A stretch of DNA of 64,000 nucleotides from an uncultured Candidatus Peribacteria bacterium. GTDB taxonomy: Bacteria; Patescibacteriota; Gracilibacteria; Peribacterales; Peribacteraceae. The notes beneath the pieces are model-generated. The model worked only from the letters and a program-made list of their open reading frames with translations. It did not search any database and was not told the DNA's origin. Location of the stretch: positions 20,240 to 84,239 of the forward strand of contig CAZRMM010000006.1 in the NCBI GenBank assembly GCA_964601225.1. The letters are read 5' to 3'. How positions within the stretch are numbered: position 1 is the stretch's first letter; every line of letters starts with the position of its first letter. Of the stretch, positions 51,697 through 63,989 are shown in pieces. Position numbers and translations under genes: made by a program.

Positions 51697-52284
51697 TTAC
51701 TTCTTGGCGGCCTTGAGATCGTAGGTGGCCTTGATTGCAGTGTCCAAACTACCGTCACTCTTTTGCGGACTGTATGAAAATTCGATTTTCGTGAAATTCA
51801 AACTGAGCGACTCCATCGGACGATCGGAGCCACTCTGAGTCATTAGAGAAGAAACCATGACATCCGCGAGTGTTACCTGATAGTACTCCTGGCCAGAAGA
51901 ATTTTTGCAGCTCAGTTTTGCTGACTTCATGTGCGTCCCGGAGACGGCATTCAGAAAGAGCTGAGGAGAAGTTTTATCGATGCGCTTCGTCACCATGAAA
52001 CTAATATCGCTCATCGAAACTTTTCCTGCTCCCATGCCGCTGCTGCCAACGGATGTAGCATTCGACATTCCCCAGCTGAAAGACTGGACTTCGATTGAAC
52101 CGGTGGCGTTTTCCCCTTGGACGCCATCGAGCCAAAGAGTGCAGCCCGGCATGGAAGTTGCCATGGAAGTGGGCGAGATCGTTTTCGCGGTTGTTCTCGT
52201 AGATTGCGCCAATGCCGTCGAGGCGCCGAAGAGAGCCGCAACCACGCCCGCGGAAAGCAGGAGGAATGATGTTCGTTGTTTCAT
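51697..52284 (-). CDS. hcp: Hcp-family (T6SS tube / phage tail-tube fold) protein with N-terminal Sec signal peptide
   Basis: LWLDGVQGENATGSIEVQSFSWGMSN...GMGAGKVSMSDISFMVTKRIDKTSPQLFLNAVSGTHMKSAKLSC...YYQVTLADVMVSSL...ESLSLNFTKIEFSYSPQKSDGS aligns by eye along the whole length with Hcp1-type proteins. The preceding MKQRTSFLLLSAGVVAALFGASTALAQS is a canonical signal peptide. I start at ATG 52284. Confidence 0.8.
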   Translation of the reverse strand: MKQRTSFLLLSAGVVAALFGASTALAQSTRTTAKTISPTSMATSMPGCTLWLDGVQGENATGSIEVQSFSWGMSNATSVGSSGMGAGKVSMSDISFMVTKRIDKTSPQLFLNAVSGTHMKSAKLSCKNSSGQEYYQVTLADVMVSSLMTQSGSDRPMESLSLNFTKIEFSYSPQKSDGSLDTAIKATYDLKAAKK

Positions 52285-52480
52285 AGAAGAAAAGAAAGAA
52301 AGATAGTCTAAGACTAGCACGCGTTTGACGTTTGTTGAGCCTCTCAACACAGGAACGTGCAAAAAAAACAAGGAGAATCGCTCTTCGTAAATTTCGTTTC
52401 AGCTGCTCTTGATTTGAACAATCCCGCACATGATGTGTTATCAAAATTTTTCTTTGCTTTCGAAAAAAGCCCTTTGGTTT

Positions 52481-52489
52481 GTGTACAAT
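52481..52489 (+). promoter_or_regulatory. -10 element GTGTACAAT
   Basis: It lies 39 nt upstream of ATG 52529. Confidence 0.45.
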
Positions 52490-52528
52490 AGGAATCCCTT
52501 TTCCTCTCTACTCTTCTTTCCTCTATCT

Positions 52529-52966
52529 ATGATCCACCTCATCGCCGTTGGGCAGTACGTCGGCACGCACATGCTCGGCATTCTCCTCGCGATCCTTGCG
52601 ACGTACGTCATCGGATTCATCTGGCACGGTCCGCTCTTCGGCAAGCAGTGGATGGCCTACAACAACATCACGCCGCCGAAGAAGGAAGATATGAAATTCT
52701 CCATGATGCTCCCCGGTCTCGCCGCAAACTTCGTCATGGTCTTCGTGCAATCGGCCGTTCTCGGACGAACGTTCCAGATCGTGAGCCTGCGGGGCATCGT
52801 CGACGCGTTGATCATCGCCGTCATTCTCTGGCTCCCCTTTACCGCGCTTGCATTCGCCAATTCGTACGCCTGGGAAGGAAAAAAGCCAGGCCACTGGTGC
52901 CTGGACGCCGGATACTACCTCATCTCAATATTGGCGGTGTCCGCGATCCTCTACATCACCCTCTGA
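52529..52966 (+). CDS. DUF1761-like membrane protein (145 aa)
   Basis: Four TM segments. GFIWHGPLFGKQWM is typical of DUF1761. Confidence 0.55.
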   Translation: MIHLIAVGQYVGTHMLGILLAILATYVIGFIWHGPLFGKQWMAYNNITPPKKEDMKFSMMLPGLAANFVMVFVQSAVLGRTFQIVSLRGIVDALIIAVILWLPFTALAFANSYAWEGKKPGHWCLDAGYYLISILAVSAILYITL

Positions 52967-53070
52967 AAACACGCCTCTTTTTCAAAAATCCCGCACCGTT
53001 CGATGCGGGATTTTTTGATGCGGTTGCGCGACGTTGCCTCAAGAACGGGCGCATGGGTAGAATGGATCCC

Positions 53071-54114
53071 ATGATTGCTTCCGCCCGCAGATTCGCTTCC
53101 TTCTTTTTTCTCGCGCTCGTTTTCGTAACGACGGTTCCCGCCGCGACCGCGCAGGGAATGTCCTTCAAGGACCTGCCGACATCGCACTCCGCCTACGCCG
53201 CGGTGCAGTACCTCACGGGCCTCGGCATCCTCAAGGGGTACGACGACGGCACGTTCCGCCCCGACAAGAAGGTGGCGCGGTCCGAAGCGATCAAGATCAT
53301 CGTGAGCGCCGTGGCCCAGGGGAAGACCTTCACGCCCGGAACTTCTTCCTACACCGATATCCCCGACGGCGCGTGGTACGAGCCGTACGTGGCATACGCC
53401 TGGAAGGAGCTCGGCATCGTCGACGGCCCGCCGACCGCCACCCTTTTCCGGGGAGACAAGAACGTCACGAAGGTGGAGTTTTTGAAGATGCTCCTGCTCG
53501 CGTACAAGGTGGATCCGAAGTCGTTTGGCGAGATCCAATTGCCGCTCGCGAGCGACGTGACGGATCCGGGCGCCTGGTACTACCCCTACATGCGCTACGC
53601 GATCACCGCGTCGATGACCACCGTGCAATCCGACGGCGCCATGGGTCCGAGCCAGGAACTCAGCCGCGCGCAAGTGGCGCTCCTCCTGCACCGCTTCCTC
53701 ACCTACCGCGACGGCCGCCGCACGCAGGCGCTCCTCTCCTCCACGGAAAGCGATCTCGTGAACGTACTCAAGATGCTCGAGGCGAAGGATCTGTCGCAGG
53801 CCGAATACGCGTCGGCGCGCGCGCTGCTCGCCGCCCGCGGCGCGCTGCAATCGAAGCCGGACACGCCGCTCGTGCAAGGCGCGCTCAAGACGACGGAAGC
53901 CTTCCGCGCGCTGGTGCGCGCGTACCGCGCCGGCTCGGAACAGCGCTTCGACGACGCGGTGACGCTCGCCAAGGAATCCTGGTCGCTTGCCGAGGCGGCG
54001 CGCCAGAAGAGCTCCGATCTCGACGGCCTCTCGTCGCAGGTGCAGGGACTCGCGAAGGAAATGGCCGACAGCGCGCGCGACCTCAAGACGAAGTCTGCGA
54101 TGCCGACACCCTAA
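53071..54114 (+). CDS. secreted protein with three S-layer-homology (SLH) domains and a helical C-terminal region
   Basis: It has a signal peptide. The three SLH units are FKDLPTSHSAYAAVQYLTGLGILKGYDDGTFRPDKKVARSEAIKII, YTDIPDGAWYEPYVAYAWKELGIVDG and ASDVTDPGAWYYPYMRYAI...LSRAQVALLLHRFL. The start could be 53053, 53062 or 53071. Confidence 0.75.
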   Translation: MIASARRFASFFFLALVFVTTVPAATAQGMSFKDLPTSHSAYAAVQYLTGLGILKGYDDGTFRPDKKVARSEAIKIIVSAVAQGKTFTPGTSSYTDIPDGAWYEPYVAYAWKELGIVDGPPTATLFRGDKNVTKVEFLKMLLLAYKVDPKSFGEIQLPLASDVTDPGAWYYPYMRYAITASMTTVQSDGAMGPSQELSRAQVALLLHRFLTYRDGRRTQALLSSTESDLVNVLKMLEAKDLSQAEYASARALLAARGALQSKPDTPLVQGALKTTEAFRALVRAYRAGSEQRFDDAVTLAKESWSLAEAARQKSSDLDGLSSQVQGLAKEMADSARDLKTKSAMPTP

Positions 54115-54131
54115 GTTCCTTATCCCCAACC

Positions 54132-55064
54132 ATGAAAAAGAACGGATCGGTTGTCCTGACGCTGAGCCTCCTCATGAACGTCTTCGCGGGTCCCATGCTC
54201 TACAGTACGTGGATCCGCAGTGCGCAGTTTCCGCTGCTTTCTCCCCGCATTTTCGCGCAGAATCGCAATGACATCATCATTAACTTCACGACGCTGCGCG
54301 GGCAGATACGGACCTTTATGGAAAATCAGAAGGACATGCACGTGGGCGTGTACTTCGAATATCTGCCGTCGGGCGTCTCCGTCGGCGTGAACGAGAAAGA
54401 CAACTTCATCTCCGCAAGCCTCATCAAGGTGCCTCTCATCATGGGCATCACGAAGATGATCGAACGGGGAAAGATTTCCCCGTCGCAAACCATCACGCTC
54501 GAAGCATCGGACCTCGACAGAAATTTCGGCCAGCTTTGGCAACGCGGCGCGGGCGCAACGCTCACGGTACAGGAGGCGATCGACCTTACGCTAAAGGAAT
54601 CCGACAACACGGCGGCGCGGGCGCTCGACAGGCTCGTAACCAACGATCCGATCCGCGAAGTGTACGACGCTCTCGACATTCCGACGGATTGGACGGGGCC
54701 CTTGCCCGTCGTGAGTCCGAAGAACTACTCCTCGGTCTTCCGTTGCCTGTACCTCTCGTGCTTCCTCAGCTTCGAGCATTCGCAGCAGATTCTGCGCACC
54801 CTCACGCAGACCGCATTCAACGAGAGCGGCATCGCAGCGGGCGTCCCGCAATTCGTGCCCGTCGCGCACAAAATCGGAATGTTCGATTCGTCGAAATCGG
54901 ATGAGCGCGTGCGGCTGGACTGCGGCATCGTCTACGTTCCCAAACGCCCGTACGTCCTCTGCATCCTCGGCGAGGCAAAAACGGGAACCGAGAACCAGAT
55001 CAATGAGTTCGCGCAGCAAATGTCGGACCTGATCTTCCGCTACGTGAGTACCTTCACGCCCTGA
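54132..55064 (+). CDS. class A beta-lactamase-fold serine hydrolase
   Basis: The SxxK motif is SASLIKV, the SDN motif is ESDNTAA and the KTG-like motif is HKIGM. It has an N-terminal hydrophobic segment. These are the C-terminal 310 codons of track ORF 53373..55064. Confidence 0.7.
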   Translation: MKKNGSVVLTLSLLMNVFAGPMLYSTWIRSAQFPLLSPRIFAQNRNDIIINFTTLRGQIRTFMENQKDMHVGVYFEYLPSGVSVGVNEKDNFISASLIKVPLIMGITKMIERGKISPSQTITLEASDLDRNFGQLWQRGAGATLTVQEAIDLTLKESDNTAARALDRLVTNDPIREVYDALDIPTDWTGPLPVVSPKNYSSVFRCLYLSCFLSFEHSQQILRTLTQTAFNESGIAAGVPQFVPVAHKIGMFDSSKSDERVRLDCGIVYVPKRPYVLCILGEAKTGTENQINEFAQQMSDLIFRYVSTFTP

Positions 55065-55071
55065 TACCTGC

Positions 55072-55371
55072 TTAGAAGAACGAGTAGACGCGGACTTCGC
55101 CGCGGCCTCCCGCGCCTCCCGCGCCGCCCGTGTTCGTCCCGCCTCCGCCGCCGCCTCCGCCGCCGCCAAGCGCGCCGCCCGCGCCTCCCGCGCAACCGGT
55201 ACTGTCCGTATCGGACCCGCCGCCGCCGCCTCCCGTGCCGTTCTTCGTGGAATTGCCCGCGGTGCCGGCGGTACCGACGGTACACGTTGCGCTACTGGTA
55301 CCGGCAGCGCCTCCGCCCGCCGTTGAGTAACCGTTCACCTTGCCACCCGCACCGGCAGTTTTACGCGGCAT
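55072..55371 (-). other. out-of-frame 3' continuation of the glycine-rich domain of 55361..57262 (frameshift or indel)
   Basis: The frame offset by one nucleotute is not the case here to be clear: the frame offset by one nucleotide encodes ...KTAGAGGKVNGYSTAGGGAAGT...GGGGGGGGGGTNTGGAGGAGGRGEVRVYSFF*. This continues the Gly-rich domain after the in-frame TAA at 55363..55361. C5 and C6 homopolymers lie at about 55396..55410. Confidence 0.55.
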
Positions 55372-57262
55372 TTCCTGTCGTGATGCCGCCGCCGCCCCCG
55401 CCTCCCCCCGCGCCGTAGAGCGAACCGCCACCGGTGCCGGCCGCGCCCGGCGTTGCGCTGGAACCGTTCCCACCGCCGCCACCGTACTCGGCCTGACCGT
55501 TGTTGGTGCCGATATTGCCGCCGCCGCCCTGGCCAGAGACACCGTTGGCTCCGGCGGTTGCCGCGGGCAATCCGCCAAGGTTGGTTGCAGCCGCACCGTT
55601 GGAACCGGCGCCGCCGGTACCGCCTCCGCCCCCGCCTGCCGAAATCGCCGCGGCAACGCCGCCCTTTCCGTATCCCCCACCGTAACACGTGAGATAGGTA
55701 CCGAACGACGAGTTGCCGCCCGCGGTTCCGTTGGATCCGGAGGCACCGGCGTTACCGTTTCCGCCCGTGCCACCCGTGCCGACCGTGACGCTTTCCGTAG
55801 CACTAAGATCGCTCGCAGTGAACCACATGTCGCCCCTCGCCCCTCCCCCTCCGCCTCCGCCTCCGATGCGTGCCGTGCCGGCAGCGCCACCCGTACCACC
55901 GCCTCCTCCACCGCCCGCACCCACGCAGATGACATACACGGCCTTGGCACCCGTGGGTTTGGTCCAGGTACCGTTGCCCGTGAACGTCTGCACGTCGACG
56001 CTTTCGGTGGTATAGGCGGTCTCCACCCAATCCGTGCCGTCGTACATGAGAGTAAGTGCCTTCTTTGCCGTGATCTCGCGCAAGGTCGTGCCGAGCTGGA
56101 GGTTGGAACTACCGAGAGTATCCTGGTCCTGGAGGATTACTTTGTTCGTCTCAGCGTTATCGGCGACAATCGTGACTGTTTGACCGGCCACGCCGTCGGC
56201 GATCGTGGGCGTCGAGGTAAGCGTCACGTTGCCCGTGGGATCGATCTTCACGACCCCGGCATTCGCCAAAATGGAGTTGCCAGCGGCGCTGATCGTCTGC
56301 GTCGCGGAGGGCTTGAGAGTCACTGTGCCGCGGACGACGAGAGAACCGGAGCTCTCAAGCGAATCCATTGCGCGGAGGATGCGACCGGAGGAAACACCGA
56401 CCACTTCGAGAGTAGCATCCGGCGCGGCGGTGCCGATGCCGAAGCGATTGTTGGTGGCGTCGAACACCACGGAGTTGCCGTCGAGCACGAACGTGTTTCC
56501 CGAGGTCCCGGTGACGTTGAGCGTCGCGCCCGAGAGGTTGCCCGTCGCGCGGATGTTGCCGGTGACAGAGACGTTCTTGCTGAACTCGAAGCGTTGGTTG
56601 GCGTGCGAATACGTGATCGCCTGGGCAAGCGTGGCGTTGCCGAAGGTGAGCACCGCGTCGGTGGCGCCGTTGTCGCTGTTGAGGGTGAGATCGCCGTTCG
56701 TGAGGATCGTGCCCGACGCGTTGATGCCGCCGGCATTGCGGATGGTAAGCGTGCCCGTCATCGTGTCGCCGGACGTGTTCACGTAGCGAGCGTCGGCATC
56801 CGTCTGGCTGATGCCGCTGCCGGCGCCGCCCTGGTCGCTGCCGCAGGAGAAGCGCTGCGTGGCGCTGTCCCAGAGAAGCTTGTCGTTGGTGCCGTTGCTG
56901 CAACCGGTGAGGCCGGCTCCGGAGAACGCGCGCTGGACATAGAGAGCGTTGCCGGACATGGACCCCGTGACGCCGAGGCTGCCCTGGACGTAAAGCGGGG
57001 CATCGAATTGAAAACGGGAAGTGGTGCGAACGTACGTAAGATTCTTATTGAGAGTACCTCCGAACTTCACGGAGATGTTGGACGAAGAATCCGTGTCGTC
57101 GATCGTTTGGAACGCCTCGGTGTTCACGAGCAGCGTCGGCGCCCACGCGCTCGTCGCAAACGCGGGTGTATGAACCGAAAACGCGAACGCGAGCACGAGC
57201 ATCGCGCGTACCAGGGAGCGACGGGCGCGAGAACTGCCGGGAATGACTTCAGACACGGACAT
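55361..57262 (-). CDS. secreted tail-fibre-like protein A: shared N-module, beta-helix-like repeats, glycine-rich C-terminal domain (interrupted)
   Basis: It has a signal peptide. WAPTLLVNTEAFQTIDD...FGGTLNKNLTYVRTTSRFQFD and DAVLTFGNATLAQAITYSHANQRFEFSKNVSVTGNIRATGNLSG are shared with genes B and C. The C-terminus VQTFTGNGTWTKPTGAKAVYVICVGAGGGGGGG... is a glycine-rich domain. Confidence 0.75.
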   Translation of the reverse strand: MSVSEVIPGSSRARRSLVRAMLVLAFAFSVHTPAFATSAWAPTLLVNTEAFQTIDDTDSSSNISVKFGGTLNKNLTYVRTTSRFQFDAPLYVQGSLGVTGSMSGNALYVQRAFSGAGLTGCSNGTNDKLLWDSATQRFSCGSDQGGAGSGISQTDADARYVNTSGDTMTGTLTIRNAGGINASGTILTNGDLTLNSDNGATDAVLTFGNATLAQAITYSHANQRFEFSKNVSVTGNIRATGNLSGATLNVTGTSGNTFVLDGNSVVFDATNNRFGIGTAAPDATLEVVGVSSGRILRAMDSLESSGSLVVRGTVTLKPSATQTISAAGNSILANAGVVKIDPTGNVTLTSTPTIADGVAGQTVTIVADNAETNKVILQDQDTLGSSNLQLGTTLREITAKKALTLMYDGTDWVETAYTTESVDVQTFTGNGTWTKPTGAKAVYVICVGAGGGGGGGTGGAAGTARIGGGGGGGGARGDMWFTASDLSATESVTVGTGGTGGNGNAGASGSNGTAGGNSSFGTYLTCYGGGYGKGGVAAAISAGGGGGGTGGAGSNGAAATNLGGLPAATAGANGVSGQGGGGNIGTNNGQAEYGGGGGNGSSATPGAAGTGGGSLYGAGGGGGGGGITTGNAA

Positions 57263-57270
57263 TTCCTCTT

Positions 57271-57279
57271 ATTATAGCA
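57271..57279 (-). promoter_or_regulatory. extended -10 element TGCTATAAT, 8 nt from ATG 57262 (leaderless)
   Basis: The minus strand reads tttttGCTATAATaagaggaaATG. Confidence 0.6.
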
Positions 57280-57323
57280 AAAATATCGCCATCTTGCCAC
57301 GCGGCGTCCTTGCGAAAAACCAG

Positions 57324-57349
57324 AAAACATCGTCAAAAAAAACGGGCAC
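57324..57349 (-). terminator. intrinsic terminator after fibre gene B
   Basis: The minus strand reads CGGGCAC-ttcg-GTGCCCG followed by TTTTTTTT. Confidence 0.75.
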
Positions 57350-57384
57350 CGAAGTGCCCGTTCGGATTCAAGGAAAGAGGTTCA

Positions 57385-58749
57385 TCACGGGGTCGTGGTC
57401 GACCAGTTGACGTTGATGTAGCCGGCATCGGAGTAGCCCGTGCTGGTGCTGGCGAGCTTCACGAGGATCGTAATGAATCCGTCGGGAGTATAGGTGCCGC
57501 TCGAGACGTTCGTGAGCGTCGCCGTGGCCCATGTGTTAGACGATCCGCTGGCGAGCGCGGCGCCGCCGGAAGTGGCGACGAGGGCACCCGTCGTGTCGAG
57601 AAGCTTGATCGTCAGGTAGTTCGCGGCGGTCGACGTGGAGCTTGTGCGGTAGCGGAATTGGATCGGGGTGGGCGTCCAGTTGTTGAAGTTCTTCGGCACC
57701 TTCACGCGCACGGCGATCCAGTAATCCTGCATCGTTCCTTGCGACGAGGTCCAACGATAGAAGTTTTCTTTGTTCGTGCTGTCGTAGCTATACGTGAGCG
57801 TGCCGACGTTCGCCGAGGAACCGGATGCGGTATAGACGGCGTTCGGATACTCGGGATGGAGCGAGAGCGAGCCGCCGGAACCGTTGGCGGTGGACGTCGT
57901 GGACCATGTGAGGTTGCCCGCGCCGTCGTTTTTCAGGTAGGTGTTGGCCGAACCCTGCGAGGTCGGAGCGGAGTACGTCACCCCCTTGAGCGTGAGGTTT
58001 CCGTCCACGGTGAGCGTGGAACCGGAGAGGTTGCCCGAGGCGCGGATGTTACCCGTGACCTTCACGTCCTTGCTGAACTCGAAACGCTGGTTAGTGTGCG
58101 AGAACTTCACGGTCTGCGCCGAGGTCTGGTTGCCGAAGGTGAGGGTGGCGTCGTTCGTATCGTTGTCGCCGTTGATGGTGAGGTTGGACTTCGTCGTGAT
58201 GGCCCCAGTGGCAGAAAGTGTGCCGTTGACGATGGCCGTGCCGTCCACGTTAAGAGTAGAACCGGAGAGGTTGCCGCGGACCTTGGTGTTGCCCGTGATG
58301 GTGGCAGCGCCGGTGATCGACGTGTTACCCGTGATCGTGGTGGCGCCGTTCACGGTCGCCGTGCCGTCGACGTTAAGAGTGGAACCGGAGAGGTTGCCAC
58401 GGACCTTGGTGTCGCCCGTGATGGTGGTAGCGCCGCGGATGTTGGCGGTGCCGTCGATCGAGAGGGTCGAACCGGAGAGGGTGCCGCGGACGCTCACGCT
58501 GTCGTTGAATTCGAAGCGGCTGTTCGTACGGTTATACGTAATGGTCTTATTGAGCGTCTGACCGAACTGGATGTACACGTTGGAAGTACCATTGCCTTCG
58601 TCGATGACCTCGAACGACTCCGTATTGACGAGCAGGGTCGGGTTCCAGGTGGAAACCGCAAGGGCATTTCCCGCAAGGAGGGAAAAAGTGAGCACCGCGG
58701 CAAGTGCGCGAGCCGAGCTCTTGGCGATGGAGGGAAAACGGGTTTCCAT
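57385..58749 (-). CDS. secreted tail-fibre-like protein B (454 aa)
   Basis: It has a signal peptide. The N-module WNPTLLVNTESFEVIDE...FGQTLNKTITYNRTNSRFEFND is present. Repeats GNLSGSTLNVDGTATVNGATTITGNT follow, then the DATLTFGNQTSAQTVKFSHTNQRFEFSKDVKVTGNIRASGNLSG module. The C-terminal ~150 aa domain (NFYRWTSSQGTMQDYW...) is shared with C. Confidence 0.8.
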   Translation of the reverse strand: METRFPSIAKSSARALAAVLTFSLLAGNALAVSTWNPTLLVNTESFEVIDEGNGTSNVYIQFGQTLNKTITYNRTNSRFEFNDSVSVRGTLSGSTLSIDGTANIRGATTITGDTKVRGNLSGSTLNVDGTATVNGATTITGNTSITGAATITGNTKVRGNLSGSTLNVDGTAIVNGTLSATGAITTKSNLTINGDNDTNDATLTFGNQTSAQTVKFSHTNQRFEFSKDVKVTGNIRASGNLSGSTLTVDGNLTLKGVTYSAPTSQGSANTYLKNDGAGNLTWSTTSTANGSGGSLSLHPEYPNAVYTASGSSANVGTLTYSYDSTNKENFYRWTSSQGTMQDYWIAVRVKVPKNFNNWTPTPIQFRYRTSSTSTAANYLTIKLLDTTGALVATSGGAALASGSSNTWATATLTNVSSGTYTPDGFITILVKLASTSTGYSDAGYINVNWSTTTP

Positions 58750-58773
58750 GTGGGTATGGGAGGTAATCGGATA

Positions 58774-58782
58774 AGTATAGCA
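58774..58782 (-). promoter_or_regulatory. extended -10 element TGCTATACT
   Basis: The minus strand reads tagTGCTATACTtat, 24 nt upstream of ATG 58749. The same nonamer plus TAT occurs at the ncRNA promoter (28535..28527). Confidence 0.55.
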
Positions 58783-58787
58783 CTAGA

Positions 58788-60506
58788 TCAGTTTTTCTGC
58801 AACTCGGTGAAGAGGAGCCGAATACTACCGAGATGCACCTGATAATTGTCCTTCGCCGAAACCCTGCACTTGACAATGAACGTGCCGCCCGGCGTCCATG
58901 TGGGTGTTCCACCGAATCCGACGGCCGCATCCGCCCACGTAATAGAGGAGAGACCGCCGTAGGAACCGGTGAGGCTCACGGGCTGGCCGTTCGTGTCGAA
59001 GACCGAGATATCGAGGCGGGCGTCCGACGGCGAAGCCGACGTGCCGCGATACTGGACCGTGATCGGATCATCCCTCCATCCCCGGAATCCTTCCGGCAGC
59101 GTGATGGGAAGAACGACCTCGTAATCCTGCAGTGAACTTTGCGTGCTCGTCCAGAGATAGAAGTTGTGCGCGTTGATCTCGTCGTGGGACACGGAGAGGC
59201 GTCCCACGTTGTCCGTCGCGTCGCCGCGAACGGATGCGCCCGGATACGGCGCGTGATACGAGGTCATCTGCTGGATCTCGCGCAGGTCGCTCTGGAGGGC
59301 GCGCATGTCCTCCACGCCCGTCACCGATCCGCCGGAAGTTGTGACTGTCGCGAGCGGAATATAAGCCTGGTCCGTCGGGAAGCCCGAGGTGGACGACGAG
59401 AGGCCGGACGAGACGAAATAAAGGTACGTGGTCGCGTTATCGCCGACGGCGTAACCGGTGACGCCCGCATACTGCGTCGGAGCGCCGCTGACGCGGTACA
59501 CGCCGGCCGCGACGTTCACCGTGAGGCCGGCGCCGGCCGAAACCTGGAGCGGGGCACTGGAGAGCGACGTGAGATCGACGCCGTTCACCGTTCCGGTGAC
59601 GGTGAGGTTGCCTTCGACGCGGACGTCGGCGGAGAACTCGAAGCGCTCATCGCTCGACGAGTAGCGGAGGGTCTCGGGAAGGATGTCGTTGCCGAAGGTG
59701 ATGACGGCGTCGCGCGCGGCGTTGTCCGCGTTGATGGTAAGATCTCCGCCGGCCGCGACGGAACCCGAGGCGGTGACCGTGCCGTCCACGAACACGTCAG
59801 TGGAGAACTCGAAGCGCTGGTTGGCCTGCGAGAAGGTGATCGTCGCGGGCAGGAGCGAATTGCCGAAGGTGAGCGCTGCGTCGGCGGCGGAGTTGTCTGC
59901 GTTGATCGTGAAGCCGTTCGCGTTCGTACCGTCGCCCATCTGGGCGTCGTTCAGCGTGCCGTCGACGCCGAGGATCACGAGATCGCCGGATCCGGTTCCC
60001 GGCGCGCGGCCGTCGACGTTCTGGGCATTGCGTGCGAACGGAACGGAAGTGATGGGCTTGCGGTCGTCGGTATCGGCGCCGACGTCGCCGGTGGGATCCA
60101 TGAGCTGATAGCTGGTGTCGGGCTGACCCGCGTACTTCACCTCCACCTGGAGGTATTTGTGACGGTTGAAATCGAACGTGGGCAGCGCGACGGCGCCGCC
60201 AAGCAGCACGTTCGCGACGCCGTTTTGCGGGGTGACCGTCTGCGCTTCGGACCAGCCGCCGTAGGTCGCGGAGCCCGTGTTGATGGAACCGCCCGACGCG
60301 TCACCGGAGACCCAGTCGCCCGAGGACCACAGCGAGAAGCGCAGCTCGATCGGCACGGTGACGGGATTGTCGCTCGCGTCGAGGAAACGGCCGGTGTACG
60401 TCAGCGTCGTCGGCGTGCCGCCGGCGACGGCGACGGGCATGGCGATGTTTGCCATGAGCAAGCTCAGGAGGGAGAGCAGGCCGATGCGGGCGACGAGGCG
60501 GCGCAT
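58788..60506 (-). CDS. secreted tail-fibre-like protein C (572 aa)
   Basis: I start at ATG 60506 (MRRLVARIGLLSLLSLLMANIAMP, a signal peptide). The N-domain YTGRFLDASDNPVTVPIELRFSLW...WSEAQTVTPQNGVANVLLG...YLQVEV...ITSVPFARNA is the pattern seen at the N-termini of many phage tail-fibre-like proteins. Two ..TFGN..RFEFS.. modules follow. The C-terminal domain (NFYLWTSTQSSLQDYE...) is shared with B. Confidence 0.8.
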   Translation of the reverse strand: MRRLVARIGLLSLLSLLMANIAMPVAVAGGTPTTLTYTGRFLDASDNPVTVPIELRFSLWSSGDWVSGDASGGSINTGSATYGGWSEAQTVTPQNGVANVLLGGAVALPTFDFNRHKYLQVEVKYAGQPDTSYQLMDPTGDVGADTDDRKPITSVPFARNAQNVDGRAPGTGSGDLVILGVDGTLNDAQMGDGTNANGFTINADNSAADAALTFGNSLLPATITFSQANQRFEFSTDVFVDGTVTASGSVAAGGDLTINADNAARDAVITFGNDILPETLRYSSSDERFEFSADVRVEGNLTVTGTVNGVDLTSLSSAPLQVSAGAGLTVNVAAGVYRVSGAPTQYAGVTGYAVGDNATTYLYFVSSGLSSSTSGFPTDQAYIPLATVTTSGGSVTGVEDMRALQSDLREIQQMTSYHAPYPGASVRGDATDNVGRLSVSHDEINAHNFYLWTSTQSSLQDYEVVLPITLPEGFRGWRDDPITVQYRGTSASPSDARLDISVFDTNGQPVSLTGSYGGLSSITWADAAVGFGGTPTWTPGGTFIVKCRVSAKDNYQVHLGSIRLLFTELQKN

Positions 60507-60507
60507 G

Positions 60508-61014
60508 TCAGGCAAGAGACGGATCGGCGTCGGAAGAAAGCAAGGAAAAGGAAGCGTCGGCGGGCGCATCATCGGCGGGCGCGGGCTCGCGGTCCGCGCG
60601 GGCGGCGCGCTTGCGACGATGGGCGGGGGTGTCGGCGAAGAAGAATCCCTCCCGGGCGATCACGCGACCGACGGTGGAGGCGGACGCATCGATCCCCTCA
60701 CCCGCAAGCAAGCGGCTGATCTCCTCCTTGCCCATGAGCGGATGCGCGCGGCGAAGAGCGCCGATGCGCGCAACCGTGGCGGGCGCGGTCTCCGGGCGGC
60801 GCACGGAAAGCGGCCGACGCGAATGCTCCTCGAGCGACGACGGATCGTCGGGGCGGAAGCGATCGAGCCAGCGCACGAGCGTGGAACGAGCGATGCCGAA
60901 GTAGCGGCACGTGAGTGAGACGTTCTCGCCGTGCTGGTGGAAGTACTCGAACCACCGCAAACGCAGCACCGCGGCGGCACTGAGTTCCAGCTCCTCGGCT
61001 TGTTTGAGGAGCAT
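60508..61014 (-). CDS. HTH-only protein resembling the N-terminal DNA-binding region of IS481-type transposases (no DDE domain)
   Basis: VSLTCRYFGIARSTLVRWLDRF...LEEHSRRPLSVRRPETAPATVARIGALRRAHPLMGKEEISRLLAGEGIDASASTVGRVIAREGF matches the HTH plus winged-helix N-terminus pattern. It is 168 aa starting at the internal ATG 61014. The stop at 60510..60508 lies 1 nt before the fibre C ATG. Confidence 0.65.
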   Translation of the reverse strand: MLLKQAEELELSAAAVLRLRWFEYFHQHGENVSLTCRYFGIARSTLVRWLDRFRPDDPSSLEEHSRRPLSVRRPETAPATVARIGALRRAHPLMGKEEISRLLAGEGIDASASTVGRVIAREGFFFADTPAHRRKRAARADREPAPADDAPADASFSLLSSDADPSLA

Positions 61015-61090: not shown

Positions 61091-61096
61091 ATTGTA
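61091..61096 (-). promoter_or_regulatory. candidate promoter TGGACT-17nt-TACAAT for the HTH/fibre C unit
   Basis: The minus strand reads ctGGACTtttttgcaaaaaaagatTACAATaat, about 75 nt upstream of ATG 61014. It contains a TTTTTTGCAAAAAA palindrome. Confidence 0.4.
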
Positions 61097-61119
61097 ATCT
61101 TTTTTTGCAAAAAAGTCCA

Positions 61120-61735
61120 GAGACACGGAATGATGTATATGAACTTTCGGCGCATTTTCGACAAAGCTGTCGCAAAATCGAAAAGCAATATGAAGTGTAT
61201 CTCTCTGAACTTTTCGCATCGAAAAAAGAATTTTCCTTCGTAAAAAAGGGTTGCGAGCCGCATGGCGCGCTCTCTCTGAGCTTTCGATCCGAAGGGGATG
61301 TGCCCGCGGATGCTCGCGATGAACTTTTCAGGAAGCCTGTCGACGCGCACTTTGGAGATCGGCCTCCGCGGGACGTCGCACGATACGAAAACCAAAATGG
61401 AGCGGATCTCCTTGAACTTTACTTTTCTGAATGCAACCGATCGATCCACAGATCGATCGATCAGCGGGAACATTCGGCTGAGTCATCCTAAAAATCGGCA
61501 GGGAGAAGGGCTCAACTGCCTCATGTTGTCCGGATGTTTTTTGGGGGAAAATATGGAGCGATTGTCTGCGAACTTTCCTCGTATTTCAGGGCTCTTCGAA
61601 TAGATGAGATGAAAATGACCGCGCAAAAGCAATGACCGGGCGGGGTCTCGCCCCGCGATTCCGAGAGAAAAGTCCGCAGACAACCGGGCACGCCCTCCTT
61701 GTATCGATTCTCCGTGAACTTTCTGCGGGAATCAG
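61120..61735 (+). repeat. six direct copies of a degenerate ~27-nt repeat with invariant GAACTTT core
   Basis: GAACTTT occurs at 61141, 61207, 61321, 61414, 61570 and 61716, all on the plus strand. Copies 2, 4, 5 and 6 share AAyATGrAGyG.ATyTCTC..GAACTTT. Spacing is irregular (66 to 156 nt). Confidence 0.75.
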
Positions 61736-62895
61736 CGCTTCGCAGTTTTGCGCGTGCGTCGGCGGCGCGGCCAGAACGGCACGAGGAGGGAGACCGGAAC
61801 CCCGCCTGGACGCAGGGCTCCCAAAGCACTGAGGGCCTCCGCAGGCGAAACGTAGGCGGGGATGGTTCCGTAGAAGGCCTCGACGCGGTACACCCATCCC
61901 AGACGCGCAACGATGCCGAGCTCGGCCATGGTCATGCCTCCCATCGTCACGCTGCCGACAGTCGACGAACCGGAAAGCACGCTCGCGGCCAGTGATTCAA
62001 AACGCCCGTTTTCCGACGGAGAAGGTGCGGGGGGAATATCGGGCGGCGTTCCCGGGAGTGGCGAAGATCCGCCGGACTCCGACGCATCCAAGGACGACGC
62101 GGAAGATGCAGATGCCGATTCGACACCCTCCATCGACGACGAGGACGAAGCCCGCGACGGCTCGGACGCAGCCGGATGCGTTACCGGGCGCGGTGACGGC
62201 GGGACGGGTGTGACGGAAGGCGCGGACGAGGGCGGCGATGCGGAAGAATACGCGGCGTCGTGCGTCGGCGCGGAAGACGACGGGGCCGCTGCGGAGGAAC
62301 CCGACGCTCCTTCGGAAGAACGGTGTGAGCCGCCAGAACCGGCGCCTGTTTCGCCGCTCCCCTCGCCCGACGTCGCGGACTCATCGCGCGTGCACGACGA
62401 GGTGTCGTATGTGCAATTGCTGCGGCAACCGAGGCTGCCCCCCGCGAAGCCGAGCGTCGTGCAACTCGCGGAACCGCGGTCGGATGCGTCGCACTGTTCG
62501 TCGCCCTCCTTGACCCCGTTCCCGCAGAGCGGCAGCACTCCTTCGGCAGCGGGAAAATCTGCATGAAAAACCGGAGACGTTCCCGTCAACACCGACCCAT
62601 CGAGCGAATCGCGATCGATATGAATGGATTGCGCGCTCGCGCCGGCGCTCGTTACGAGCGCAACGACGGAACACAGCACGGTCAACCGCAGCCGGCGACG
62701 GGTGTTTGGTGTGTATGTAATCGGATCATTGTACAGAAAAACACCCTTTTTCTCAATGCACTCCTCCGTAGGAAGGAATGGAAAAATGGAAAGTTTTTTA
62801 GACAAAAATGCACGAAGTAACACCCGAAGGAATTTGTCTGCTCTGGAGACGGGATCGGAAGCCGTTTTTTTGCTACAATGAAACGATGCACACAA
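61732..62895 (-). CDS. secreted protein: Cys-rich CGNG-type repeat, Ser/Ala/Pro-rich low-complexity region, C-terminal hydrophobic + Arg-rich tail
   Basis: CGNGVKEGDEQCDASDRGSASCTTLGFAGGSLGCRSNCTYDTSSC resembles the myxococcal-type cysteine-rich repeat. The tail is GGVPVSLLVPFWPRRRRTRKTAKR. The true start is probably downstream of the CTGTACAAT -10 element at 62736..62728 (a non-ATG start before TVLCSVVALVTSAGASAQS), so the 5' end is uncertain. Confidence 0.6.
   Translation of the reverse strand: MCASFHCSKKTASDPVSRADKFLRVLLRAFLSKKLSIFPFLPTEECIEKKGVFLYNDPITYTPNTRRRLRLTVLCSVVALVTSAGASAQSIHIDRDSLDGSVLTGTSPVFHADFPAAEGVLPLCGNGVKEGDEQCDASDRGSASCTTLGFAGGSLGCRSNCTYDTSSCTRDESATSGEGSGETGAGSGGSHRSSEGASGSSAAAPSSSAPTHDAAYSSASPPSSAPSVTPVPPSPRPVTHPAASEPSRASSSSSMEGVESASASSASSLDASESGGSSPLPGTPPDIPPAPSPSENGRFESLAASVLSGSSTVGSVTMGGMTMAELGIVARLGWVYRVEAFYGTIPAYVSPAEALSALGALRPGGVPVSLLVPFWPRRRRTRKTAKR
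62871..62879 (+). promoter_or_regulatory. extended -10 element TGCTACAAT, 6 nt from ATG 62886 (leaderless)
   Basis: The sequence reads tttttTTGCTACAATgaaacgATG. Confidence 0.6.
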
Positions 62896-63989
62896 AAATC
62901 AATCGCACGCTCTTCGCGGGGCTTCTCCTCGTGAGCCATCTTCCGATCGTCGGCGCCGTCGATGCGCCGGCAACACCCTTCGAAAGGAACCTCATCATTA
63001 CCGCGTACTATTCGCCGCTCGAGGGACAATGTTGCTACGTCAAAGGCTCACTGGAAGACGACAGGGTGCTCAACGGCCAAGGCGTGCGAGGCGCCGATGG
63101 CACCGCGGTATACCCGGGTATGGCGGCGGCGCCGAAGTCGTATGCATTCGGCACGAGGATCGAACTCCCGGGAATTGGAATCGTTACAGTGCACGATCGC
63201 GGCGGCGCAATCGTGGACGGAAAGGACACCGACCGGCTGGATCTTTGGATGGGAAGCGGCGAGGAAGGATTGGCGCGCGCCCTTGAATTCGGCGTGCAAC
63301 GCGTTCGGGCAACCATCTATCCGCCGACGGCGTCGCTCCCCGTCGAAAAATTTTCCCTGGACGATTTCGCATCGCCCGTAGAACGAGTGCAACCGTATCA
63401 ACTGGAGGACACGACACTTATGGATATTCGCGTGACGCTCGGCGATCACTCTGCGTCGGCCGCGATGCTCCAGGAAGCCCTCAAGAGCGCCGGTTTTGCC
63501 GTGACGGGCAAGAAAGCGACCTTTGACGAATCCACGCGCGCGTCTTTGCGATCATTCCTCGATGAAGCGGGCCTCTCCGAGCCAGATGACCGACTGACGC
63601 CAAGGGCCGCCGCGCATCTTCTCGCGGCGATGAATCACCGTCATGACCCGGACCGACTCAATTCCCCCATCCGCGAAGGAAGCCCCGCGGATGCCGTTGC
63701 CGAAGCAAAAACCGTTCTCTATACCATTGGACGCTATTCCGGACCGATTGACGGTCGTTACGACGACGAACTTCGCGATACCGTGAAACAATTGCAACTC
63801 TCCAGCGGAATCATCGACGGACCGGAAGACACCGGTGCCGGACAAATCGGACCAAAGACGCTTATCGTCCTCAATCGTCTCTGGAAAATACGCTCCGCAT
63901 CCATCGACGCCGAAGACGCCCTAGCGCTTCGCGCCTCGCCGTTCGGCACACAGGTGCATGAAGCACTGGTCGCCTACCGTTCTCACTAA
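62886..63989 (+). CDS. secreted 3D-domain (MltA/RlpA-like double-psi barrel) cell-wall protein with peptidoglycan-binding-like repeats
   Basis: It has a signal peptide. ITAYYSPLEGQ...NGQGVRGADGT...AAPKSYAFGTRIELPGIGIVTVHDRGGAI...DRLDLWMGSGEEG is the 3D-domain pattern. The later GPIDGRYDDELRDTVKQLQLSSGI...GQIGPKT is PG_binding_1-like. Confidence 0.75.
   Translation: MHTKINRTLFAGLLLVSHLPIVGAVDAPATPFERNLIITAYYSPLEGQCCYVKGSLEDDRVLNGQGVRGADGTAVYPGMAAAPKSYAFGTRIELPGIGIVTVHDRGGAIVDGKDTDRLDLWMGSGEEGLARALEFGVQRVRATIYPPTASLPVEKFSLDDFASPVERVQPYQLEDTTLMDIRVTLGDHSASAAMLQEALKSAGFAVTGKKATFDESTRASLRSFLDEAGLSEPDDRLTPRAAAHLLAAMNHRHDPDRLNSPIREGSPADAVAEAKTVLYTIGRYSGPIDGRYDDELRDTVKQLQLSSGIIDGPEDTGAGQIGPKTLIVLNRLWKIRSASIDAEDALALRASPFGTQVHEALVAYRSH

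Follow-up and report, generated by a model that had tools for sequence, protein, structure and literature searches.

Does the close placement of an Hcp gene, an SLH-domain gene, and three tail-fibre-like genes on a Candidatus Peribacteria chromosome mean that their products build one structure outside the membrane? This question is raised by a stretch of 64,000 nucleotides (hereafter, the window) from a tiny, uncultured, groundwater-type Candidatus Peribacteria bacterium (GenBank assembly GCA_964601225.1, contig CAZRMM010000006.1, positions 20,240 to 84,239), which represents ~64 kb of a 90.5-kb contig from a genome of probably ~1.2 Mb. An earlier note on this DNA had described six genes for exported proteins within 9.3 kb, and had offered, as one reading, a cell-surface appendage or adhesin system assembled from domesticated tail modules. 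Here, we favor a different answer, to which we would assign a probability of roughly 60%, namely that two unrelated things adjoin one another: a Peribacteria-wide surface locus made up of SLH, helix-turn-helix (HTH), and fibre genes, and an orphan Hcp with a predicted Sec export signal. The genes in question are the following.

51697..52284, minus strand: Hcp homologue (T6SS_HCP) with a predicted signal peptide, leader MKQRTSFLLLSAGVVAALFGASTALA with the putative cleavage site before QS
53062..54114, plus strand: SLH cell-wall anchor (Pfam SLH, 2e-24), with predicted signal peptide, three SLH motifs, and a C-terminal five-helix bundle
54132..55064, plus strand: predicted exported serine hydrolase of beta-lactamase fold (Beta-lactamase2, 1.8e-35), 17 nt 3' of the SLH gene
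55361..57262, minus strand: fibA, predicted exported paralogue with C-terminal Gly_rich_2 (Pfam, 1.8e-8) and a match to phrog_863 (1.6e-18)
57385..58749, minus strand: fibB, predicted exported protein with a repeat shaft and a C-terminal lectin-like beta-sandwich
58788..60506, minus strand: fibC, predicted exported protein with an N-terminal domain of its own, the common repeats, and the C-terminal beta-sandwich also found in fibB
60508..61014, minus strand: HTH_28/HTH_32 DNA-binding protein of 168 residues (HTH_32, 8.7e-11), translationally coupled to fibC

The six genes counted earlier are all present and supported by Pfam or BLASTP, and the accompanying claim that each product carries a signal peptide or hydrophobic leader also stands. 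In each case, a basic stretch at the N-terminus is followed by a hydrophobic stretch, with an AxA-type site in five of the six proteins (the beta-lactamase-fold protein being the exception), and these leaders are conserved in the orthologues. Nothing in the locus is more unusual than the HTH gene, which had gone uncounted.

To map homologues of every window gene, we drew on the individual contigs around fibB relatives and on a metagenome-wide scan (76 loci), and we treated as informative those loci in which fibC and fibB were both present with at least 3.8 kb of upstream sequence (n = 30). In 25 of these 30 loci, fibC has an SLH orthologue no more than 3.8 kb upstream, always in divergent orientation, and in nearly all loci the fibC orthologue is directly upstream of fibB. 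The dominant arrangement thus has the SLH gene divergent from fibC-fibB, often with fibA-like and beta-lactamase-fold genes downstream; homologues of the latter occur near fibre genes in about 10 loci. The exceptions to this adjacency are L007, L008, L091, and L094, which show the arrangement of the window in whole or in part, and L163. Among these, L007 is the nearest syntenic relative, and its genes run in the order 3D-domain protein, Cys-rich protein, fibC, fibB, fibA, beta-lactamase-fold protein, SLH protein, and DUF1761 protein, which is the gene set of the window, with no Hcp. Pairing of SLH and fibre genes is found as well in the complete genome CP082927.1 and in Ca. Peribacter riflensis. 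A homologue of Hcp was present at none of the 81 fibre loci of other genomes. Accordingly, of the co-localisation of hcp, SLH, and fibre genes that had been proposed, relatives keep the SLH-fibre part and lack the hcp part.

A search from the Hcp side gave the same picture. The closest homologues of the window Hcp (59-69% identity) have as neighbours genes for PurP-like protein, thioredoxin, PGI, RuvA, GyrA, and PMSR, and no homologue of the fibre, SLH, or beta-lactamase-fold proteins is found at the five closest Hcp loci, nor at the 80 Hcp loci of a wider scan with one genome per species. These observations bear directly on the proposal that Hcp tube, SLH anchor, and fibres form a single extracellular appendage of domesticated tail modules. 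Speaking for such an appendage are the predicted export of all components, their placement within 9.3 kb, the fact that Hcp is a true homologue of tube proteins, and a window free of other type VI secretion system (T6SS) genes and of phage genes. Against it, besides the two locus surveys and the Hcp-free relative L007, stands the Hcp gene itself, which occupies a separate and divergent transcription unit with 51% G+C, as compared with 61-65% for the fibre genes. Because Hcp and fibre loci do not co-occur, we consider the single appendage to be largely refuted and very improbable. What survives of the earlier surface-appendage idea is the SLH-fibre part, since this set is conserved and predicted to be exported and has no phage or T6SS companions, which makes a surface structure assembled outside the membrane a reasonable proposition; membership of Hcp does not survive.

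Regarding those missing companions, the open reading frames (ORFs) of 11 canonical T6SS loci, which by Pfam included TssB, TssC, TssE, TssF, TssG, TssK, TssA, ClpV, and TssM, matched in the window only Hcp and one marginal hit (2e-4). Phage structural genes were identified neither in the window nor in the synteny maps, which track homologues of window genes only. The Pfam survey of the rest of the window, from which the top 25 of 37 families were listed, agrees with this, and so the earlier statement that the window holds no T6SS or phage genes apart from Hcp is borne out by both the T6SS queries and the Pfam list.

The paralogy of the three fibre genes is evident from pairwise BLASTP (1e-42 and 2e-38, the latter for fibC and fibB), and a repeat of ~45 residues, 'DN..DA.LTFGN..T..YS..NQRFEFS', is common to all three products. 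A C-terminal domain of ~150 residues is common to fibB and fibC, and fibA ends in its glycine-rich domain. At the opposite end, the mature N-terminus 'SxWxPTLLVNTE' of fibA and fibB is nearly invariant and starts exactly at the predicted cleavage site. For fibA, an orthologue in L006 has 58% identity. At least 262 homologues of fibB were found, the named ones belonging to Peribacteria, Peribacteraceae, Peregrinibacteria, or the Patescibacteria group, and they are unlabelled, labelled hypothetical, or given the JGI name 'cytoskeletal protein CcmA (bactofilin family)' (P0129, P0131, and P0149). The fibre repeat region has a weak Pfam match to Bactofilin (30.2 bits against a cut-off of 27.9). Bactofilins are cytoplasmic polymers, and because the fibre proteins carry signal peptides and combine a lectin-like head with a fibre architecture, we regard the last name as a misannotation.

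In an AlphaFold2 monomer model of fibB from 72 sequences (pLDDT 82), the long shaft shows little regular secondary structure, and a beta-sandwich is confidently predicted at the C-terminus. The structural matches of this sandwich are carbohydrate-binding modules, the C-terminus of the K2-2 tailspike, domain III of Cry toxin, and ephrin-receptor ligand-binding domains. Against viral models (Foldseek, BFVD), the best matches of fibB were fibre proteins of uncultured phages (4e-10), with low TM-scores, and the PHROG tail-fibre families were matched by fibA (1.6e-18) and fibB (5e-7). At the level of whole proteins, tblastn against 50,697 phage genomes returned four marginal hits and no full-length homologue for fibB and no hits for fibA, and 2.9 million viral contigs contained no full-length fibre homologue, just short motif hits of 21-40 residues. 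The sole overlap with viral contigs is 'GVTYSAPTSQGSANTYLKNDGAGNLTWS' (window 57900-58000, ~residues 250-290 of fibB), with 50-76% identity over those 21-40 residues, and this looks like a module common to phage fibres. Peptidase_S74, the endosialidase-type intramolecular chaperone domain of tail fibres, is absent from the three fibres of the window and is present in a paralogue of 2208 residues at L119 (Pfam, 2.9e-13).

Set beside phage fibres and tailspikes, the window proteins appear similar in their extended repeat shaft and putative C-terminal binding domain, as judged from the monomer model, and further points of likeness are the PHROG and BFVD matches, the S74 domain of one paralogue, and the short 'NDGAGNLTW'-type motif shared with viral contigs. 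They differ in that they are Sec-exported by prediction, chromosomal, conserved across the lineage, unaccompanied by phage genes, and without S74. A recent phage origin was rejected on the four marginal hits of fibB and the zero hits of fibA in the phage genomes; the fibres are encoded by the chromosomes of a cellular lineage and are tail-fibre-like in build. Thus, the description 'tail-fibre-like' is apt for the architecture (by PHROG, Foldseek, motif, and the S74 paralogue) and goes no further, and that of 'domesticated phage tail modules' is upheld for Hcp, a true tube-protein homologue, and is weak for the fibres, which have no full-length homologue among the phage genomes and viral contigs searched.

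The SLH protein belongs to a family with 335 hits, in which the named sources are Peribacteria or Peregrinibacteria and one is labelled Woesebacteria. The names attached to this family and to the fibB homologues place the window in a bacterium of the candidate phyla radiation (CPR). Among the hits listed, most have 338-350 residues, and mean column identity is 59% in an alignment of 58 sequences; the 350-residue form of the window corresponds to database entry P0232 with 100% identity. Its AlphaFold2 model (pLDDT 92, pTM 0.86) consists of three helix-pair motifs and then a five-helix bundle. The SLH half superposes on the SLH domain of B. anthracis Sap (PDB ID: 3pyw; Foldseek 4.5e-6, TM 0.85) and on that of SpaA from P. 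alvei, so that the three-motif domain resembles these anchors with a TM of ~0.8 and with conserved TRAE-type arginines. Here, the first motif reads 'ARSE' (family consensus NRAE), the third 'SRAQ' (consensus TRGD), and the second, 'TKVE', is arginine-free. The TRAE-type arginines, R73 in SLH1 and R202 in SLH3, are invariant in the 58 sequences, and an SLH2 without arginine is found in SpaA too. For the five-helix bundle, Foldseek found no match in the PDB. As in the SLH anchoring scaffoldins of C. thermocellum, the protein would serve as anchor for a separately encoded exported partner, and one fibre paralogue does bear a dockerin. Unlike those scaffoldins, the window anchor is small (350 residues), has a five-helix passenger without structural match and no cohesin, and its partner is deduced from gene order. 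We also noticed that orthologue P0257 is publicly named 'DNA-binding antitoxin AbrB/MazE fold protein', which is a misleading label.

The beta-lactamase-fold gene that follows is separated from the SLH gene by 17 nt. Its translation has the SxxK (as SLIK) and SDN motifs and KIG instead of KTG, and it scores 80.8 bits against NCBIfam bla_class_A, where the cut-off is 200, for which reason the product falls outside class A and is best called a beta-lactamase-fold serine hydrolase rather than a class A beta-lactamase, as judged from these motifs and scores.

In the window, the stop codon of the HTH gene lies one base from the start of fibC (TGA-C-ATG), and relatives have TAA-CCC-ATG at this place; the stop-1 nt-ATG junction supports the fibC start at 60506. 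More strikingly, the fibre loci contain 30 HTH-bearing ORFs, of which 20 continue in frame into a fibre; of the 10 that are not fused, 9 are followed immediately, on the same strand, by a fibre ORF. The fused proteins, in which Pfam HTH_28 or HTH_32 is above cut-off, share a layout of HTH, linker, one hydrophobic segment with basic residues N-terminal to it, AxA site, and fibre. A search with the HTH domain of 1.84 billion representative proteins showed that 28 of the best 150 have at least 700 residues with the HTH at the N-terminus, and every one of these 28, which come from independent gene calls, carries fibC- or fibB-type sequence, most with a hydrophobic segment at about residues 150-250. 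In Ca. P. riflensis, two HTH-fibre proteins (1121 and 1638 residues) are directly upstream of the SLH gene. None of 123 fibB-type proteins has an HTH, and thus the fusion concerns fibC-type and other paralogues. Because HTH and fibre are fused in some genomes and split in others, we take the two to be functionally linked.

Several variants of this theme were observed. The S74-bearing protein of L119 (12377-19000, minus strand; 2208 residues) begins with an HTH, continues with a membrane segment, and ends in Peptidase_S74; L159 (9641-11431, plus strand) encodes a fibre paralogue with HTH and a type I dockerin; and L099 (12562-14844, plus strand) encodes a fibA-like protein with two tandem HTH modules before the membrane segment. 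Among stand-alone HTH proteins (P0352-P0501), 52 of 111 have a hydrophobic segment after residue 120 and no fibre, and these membrane-anchored proteins are possibly the stub form of split genes. Stop-codon read-through or recoding at the HTH-fibre junctions was rejected for L158 and L111, where the boundary is an ordinary stop-3 nt-ATG. In L164, HTH and fibre share a frame across one stop, and the junction is a TCCTAAG repeat.

These fusions also bear on whether the fibre genes might be the decayed remnant of a prophage or tailocin and the HTH gene a fragment of an insertion sequence (IS). The PHROG tail-fibre matches and the resemblance of the HTH to N-terminal domains of IS481/IS630 transposases point that way. 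Yet in dozens of genomes the proteins of the locus are still 30-65% identical, their reading frames and signal peptides are intact, and full-length homologues are absent from the phage genomes and viral contigs searched. Likewise, the HTH is conserved, is fused to or directly upstream of a fibre in 29 of the 30 HTH-bearing ORFs, and shows no transposase catalytic domain detectable by Pfam. The transposase-fragment interpretation of the HTH gene is ruled out by its coupling to fibC and by the fusions, and the remnant reading as a whole, refuted by the conservation and the HTH-fibre fusions, is hardly credible.

The layout of the fused relatives is akin to that of ToxR, TcpP, and CadC and of RsgI-type anti-sigma factors with extracellular carbohydrate-binding modules, in that a DNA-binding domain at the N-terminus, on the cytoplasmic side, is connected by a single membrane segment to an extracytoplasmic part with a lectin-like end. 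There are nonetheless differences from these: the DNA-binding domain belongs to the transposase-like HTH_28/HTH_32 type and not to that of OmpR, a fibre of 500 to 2000 residues makes up the ectodomain, and the membrane segment is followed by an AxA site at which the fibre may be released. Furthermore, HTH and fibC are separate genes in the window, and the single chain of the ToxR-like proteins is not found there. Retention of the AxA site in the fusions suggests, at the level of sequence, that cleavage could release the fibre and leave an HTH-membrane stub; that such a release would couple export to regulation is speculation.

From this likeness arises a further reading, in which the fibres would be the outer halves of membrane-tethered HTH factors, a contact-sensing one-component system on a tail-fibre scaffold in a CPR bacterium with an obligate need for partners, to which is added a type-VI-independent Sec-exported Hcp in CPR bacteria and archaea. 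The two halves are fused in many relatives and split, though translationally coupled, in the window, and gene expression would be tied to fibre export or partner contact either by cleavage through signal peptidase or by a ligand bound at the lectin-like tip. We regard this as possible and hold it quite tentatively.

Turning to the second component, the homology of Hcp is secure, with 1.3e-27 and 97 bits against Pfam T6SS_HCP (PF05638; cut-off 23.5) and 6.6e-24 against P. aeruginosa Hcp1 (PDB ID: 1y12), though with NCBIfam TIGR03344 its 45.9 bits are under the cut-off of 58.9. The likeness to Hcp1/TssD extends across the whole Hcp domain. The differences are that T6SS Hcp/TssD is cytoplasmic and leaderless and usually has core TssA-M nearby, whereas the window Hcp has a predicted cleavable Sec signal peptide, lacks nearby T6SS genes, as do 15 similar loci, and belongs to a clade with two invariant cysteines. 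Its leader of 26 residues (basic, hydrophobic, then AxA, by heuristic call) is kept in other Hcp proteins of CPR bacteria as well as in its closest homologues. Neither CPR bacteria nor archaea are known to have a T6SS.

Approximately half of the Hcp homologues in the database carry N-terminal signal peptides. In the genome scan, such forms were found in CPR (one Patescibacteria-group genome, Ca. Peribacteria, and Saccharimonadia), in archaea (several Nitrososphaera genomes, one Thermoproteota, and one Halobacteriales), and elsewhere in Akkermansia, Saprospiraceae, and Kapaibacterium (three tandem copies). At 15 signal-peptide Hcp loci (144 ORFs within 6.5 kb), no T6SS family besides Hcp was matched by two or more ORFs. 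In contrast, 11 leaderless control loci (113 ORFs) gave TssF in 9 ORFs, VipB, VipA, and ImpA in 8 each, TssG and gp25 in 6 each, VasE in 4, and IcmF in 3. A rough neighbour-joining tree of Hcp domains has the signal-peptide forms in many clades, interleaved with leaderless ones, and therefore lends no support to a single origin. Hcp of the window is accordingly an orphan and a bystander to the fibre locus, drawn from a broad signal-peptide class without type VI neighbours.

Within this class, the archaeal proteins with signal-peptide-like leaders are from L023, L036, L037, L057, and L077 (Nitrososphaera/Thermoproteota) and L059 (Halobacteriales), and at least some of the contigs are truly archaeal, since their neighbours include DNA polymerase D and an archaeal threonyl-tRNA synthetase editing domain. 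Candidatus Kapaibacterium (L088:9700-12400, JBKJTT010000069.1) has three close signal-peptide Hcp paralogues with an extra N-terminal domain before each Hcp domain. In actinomycetes, homologues of 280-290 residues (P0008, P0011, P0014; L047, L055, L076) have a conserved hydrophobic N-terminal segment and an extra domain, features that suggest a membrane-anchored, extracytoplasmic Hcp in these monoderms. As for disulfides, enrichment of cysteine pairs in exported Hcp was examined as a sign and rejected, as at least two cysteines occur in 26% of exported and 43% of leaderless forms. The pair C48 and C126 is invariant in, and specific to, the Peribacteria clade, and could form a disulfide in the exported protein.

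The leader might instead be an artefact of the start codon, with Hcp serving a contractile system elsewhere in the genome. Only part of the genome was seen, and one database homologue, P0003, is called from an internal start and so lacks the leader. But the leader is in frame in all four of the closest homologues as well as in other CPR Hcp proteins, and the in-frame starts near the beginning of the Hcp domain lie only within the leader region. Moreover, the signal-peptide loci lack T6SS neighbours, and the leaderless ones have them. In a report on complete Peribacteria genomes, S-layer genes, a sortase, a type II system, and type IV pili are described, and type VI is unmentioned (PMC4736985). 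We therefore judge this explanation to be quite improbable.

How, then, would the two components work? From gene order, domain content, and the monomer models, we infer that fibC, fibB, and fibA would be exported by Sec, cleaved after the AxA site, and form extended, probably trimeric, tail-fibre-like shafts outside the membrane, tipped by a lectin-like beta-sandwich (fibB and fibC) or a glycine-rich domain (fibA). The SLH protein would hold them on the wall, its three SLH motifs binding wall polymer and its five-helix bundle being where the invariant N-terminus of each mature fibre would dock. The small HTH protein, with its stop codon so close to the fibC start, would be the regulator of the locus, and in the fused relatives fibre export or ligand binding could be coupled to transcription via the single membrane segment. 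The beta-lactamase-fold hydrolase and a 3D/PG-binding protein encoded nearby would be accessory wall enzymes. The system as a whole would likely allow an organism that is predicted to depend on others to attach to surfaces or to partner cells. The orphan Hcp would work without a type VI apparatus and merely adjoins the fibre locus in this genome; that it is a ring-forming scaffold outside the cell or in the wall zone is a guess.

Several points weigh against this two-part reading. The pairing of SLH and fibre genes is strong and not absolute, for the SLH orthologue of L205 has housekeeping genes as its neighbours and lacks a fibre gene within 9 kb, and in the window itself fibA and the beta-lactamase-fold gene separate the SLH gene from fibC. 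The trimeric state and the SLH-fibre contact are deduced from gene order, and the signal peptides were called by eye and with a hydrophobicity rule rather than by a trained predictor. With a part of the genome in view, a contractile system may also be encoded beyond the window. Lastly, the C-terminal domain of fibB is well conserved throughout the lineage, which fits better with a structural lattice or self-binding than with a fast-varying adhesin tip.

This last point leads to another account, according to which fibB and fibC are S-layer lattice proteins tied to the wall by the SLH protein, and not discrete adhesive fibres. Here, the lineage-wide occurrence of SLH-fibC-fibB with well-conserved N- and C-terminal domains, the strong terminator-like hairpin after fibB, and the reports of S-layers on CPR cells and of S-layer genes in Peribacteria genomes are all in its favour. 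It is harder to reconcile with an extended, repeat-rich shaft of variable length, with paralogues that bear a tail-fibre chaperone or a dockerin and in some cases reach 2208 residues, and with structural matches to fibres and lectin modules rather than to known lattice proteins. On this evidence, we consider a lattice to be rather unlikely, and we retain the anchored-fibre locus with a separate Hcp as our preferred reading.

Consensus scans fit three transcription units as pattern matches, these being Hcp alone, DUF1761-SLH-beta-lactamase-fold (with intergenic gaps of ~95 and 17 nt), and HTH-fibC-fibB, and fibA appears to follow with a promoter of its own. The sites concerned are listed below.

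57271..57300, minus strand: promoter-like site 5' of fibA (10/12 consensus matches with extended TG; a consensus match only)
57340..57363, minus strand: intrinsic-terminator-like hairpin directly 3' of fibB (10-bp stem, 6 G-C pairs, T run)
61091..61119, minus strand: promoter-like site 5' of the HTH-fibC-fibB unit (9/12 consensus matches; a consensus match only)

On either side of these units are three further genes.

52430..52966, plus strand: DUF1761 membrane protein (Pfam DUF1761, 8.3e-22), divergent from the Hcp gene
61732..62895, minus strand: predicted exported protein with a Cys-rich repeat (no Pfam match), a Ser/Pro-rich region, and a conserved C-terminal tail
62886..63989, plus strand: predicted exported protein with 3D and PG_binding_1 domains (Pfam PG_binding_1, 4.2e-10; 3D, 1.3e-3)

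The DUF1761 protein has an orthologue only in L007 (66% identity), and is thus a neighbour in the window-like arrangement alone. In the same arrangement, the other two genes are neighbours as well. The first of them encodes one cysteine-rich 'CGNG..E.GE.CD' repeat, which we take to be of the Myxococcus type, then a long Ser/Pro-rich stretch and a conserved hydrophobic-basic C-terminal tail; this C-terminal segment is kept upstream of fibC in L007, L008, and L091, and in L091 a similar gene sits between the HTH gene and fibC. The second, whose domains make it a likely cell-wall-remodelling enzyme, has orthologues adjoining fibC in L007, L008, and L094.

The rest of the window is ordinary chromosome, with genes for EF-Tu, ribosomal protein S10, RNase III, GidB, FtsJ, and PAS sensor kinases, and an Rfam scan found three tRNAs, none relevant to the locus. 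Within window positions 1-51323, a T4SS_pilin match was found in 2 of 49 ORFs (best 1.3e-13), together with a lamin-tail-domain protein and a CHASE-domain sensor. No CsaB pyruvyl transferase was among the 25 of 37 Pfam families listed for the window. The segment 46000-52400, which comprises two PAS/histidine-kinase genes, the Hcp gene, and DUF1761, has 49-53% G+C, as against ~58% in the rest of the window and 61-65% in the fibre genes. Similar kinases are on the opposite side of the fibre locus in L007, and this difference in placement suggests a rearrangement.

In the open-access literature that we searched, we found nothing specific on fibre or SLH proteins of Peribacteria, and no description of the SLH/HTH/fibre locus or of a signal-peptide Hcp class in CPR bacteria or archaea. 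Little is known of how CPR bacteria attach to and sense other cells, and most of their surface proteins lack annotation. Against this background, the locus is a concrete, lineage-wide candidate, which combines an SLH anchor that has a new helical domain, a large exported fibre family, and a DNA-binding domain that many genomes have fused to the fibre. An architecture in which a membrane segment links a cytoplasmic HTH to a long, lectin-tipped fibre is unusual, and it suggests a testable link from surface contact or fibre export to transcription. As for Hcp, automatic 'T6SS Hcp' labels mislead in genomes with signal-peptide forms, and because these forms are always found without type VI neighbours, the tube fold of phage tails has evidently been put to a further use, apart from contractile injection.

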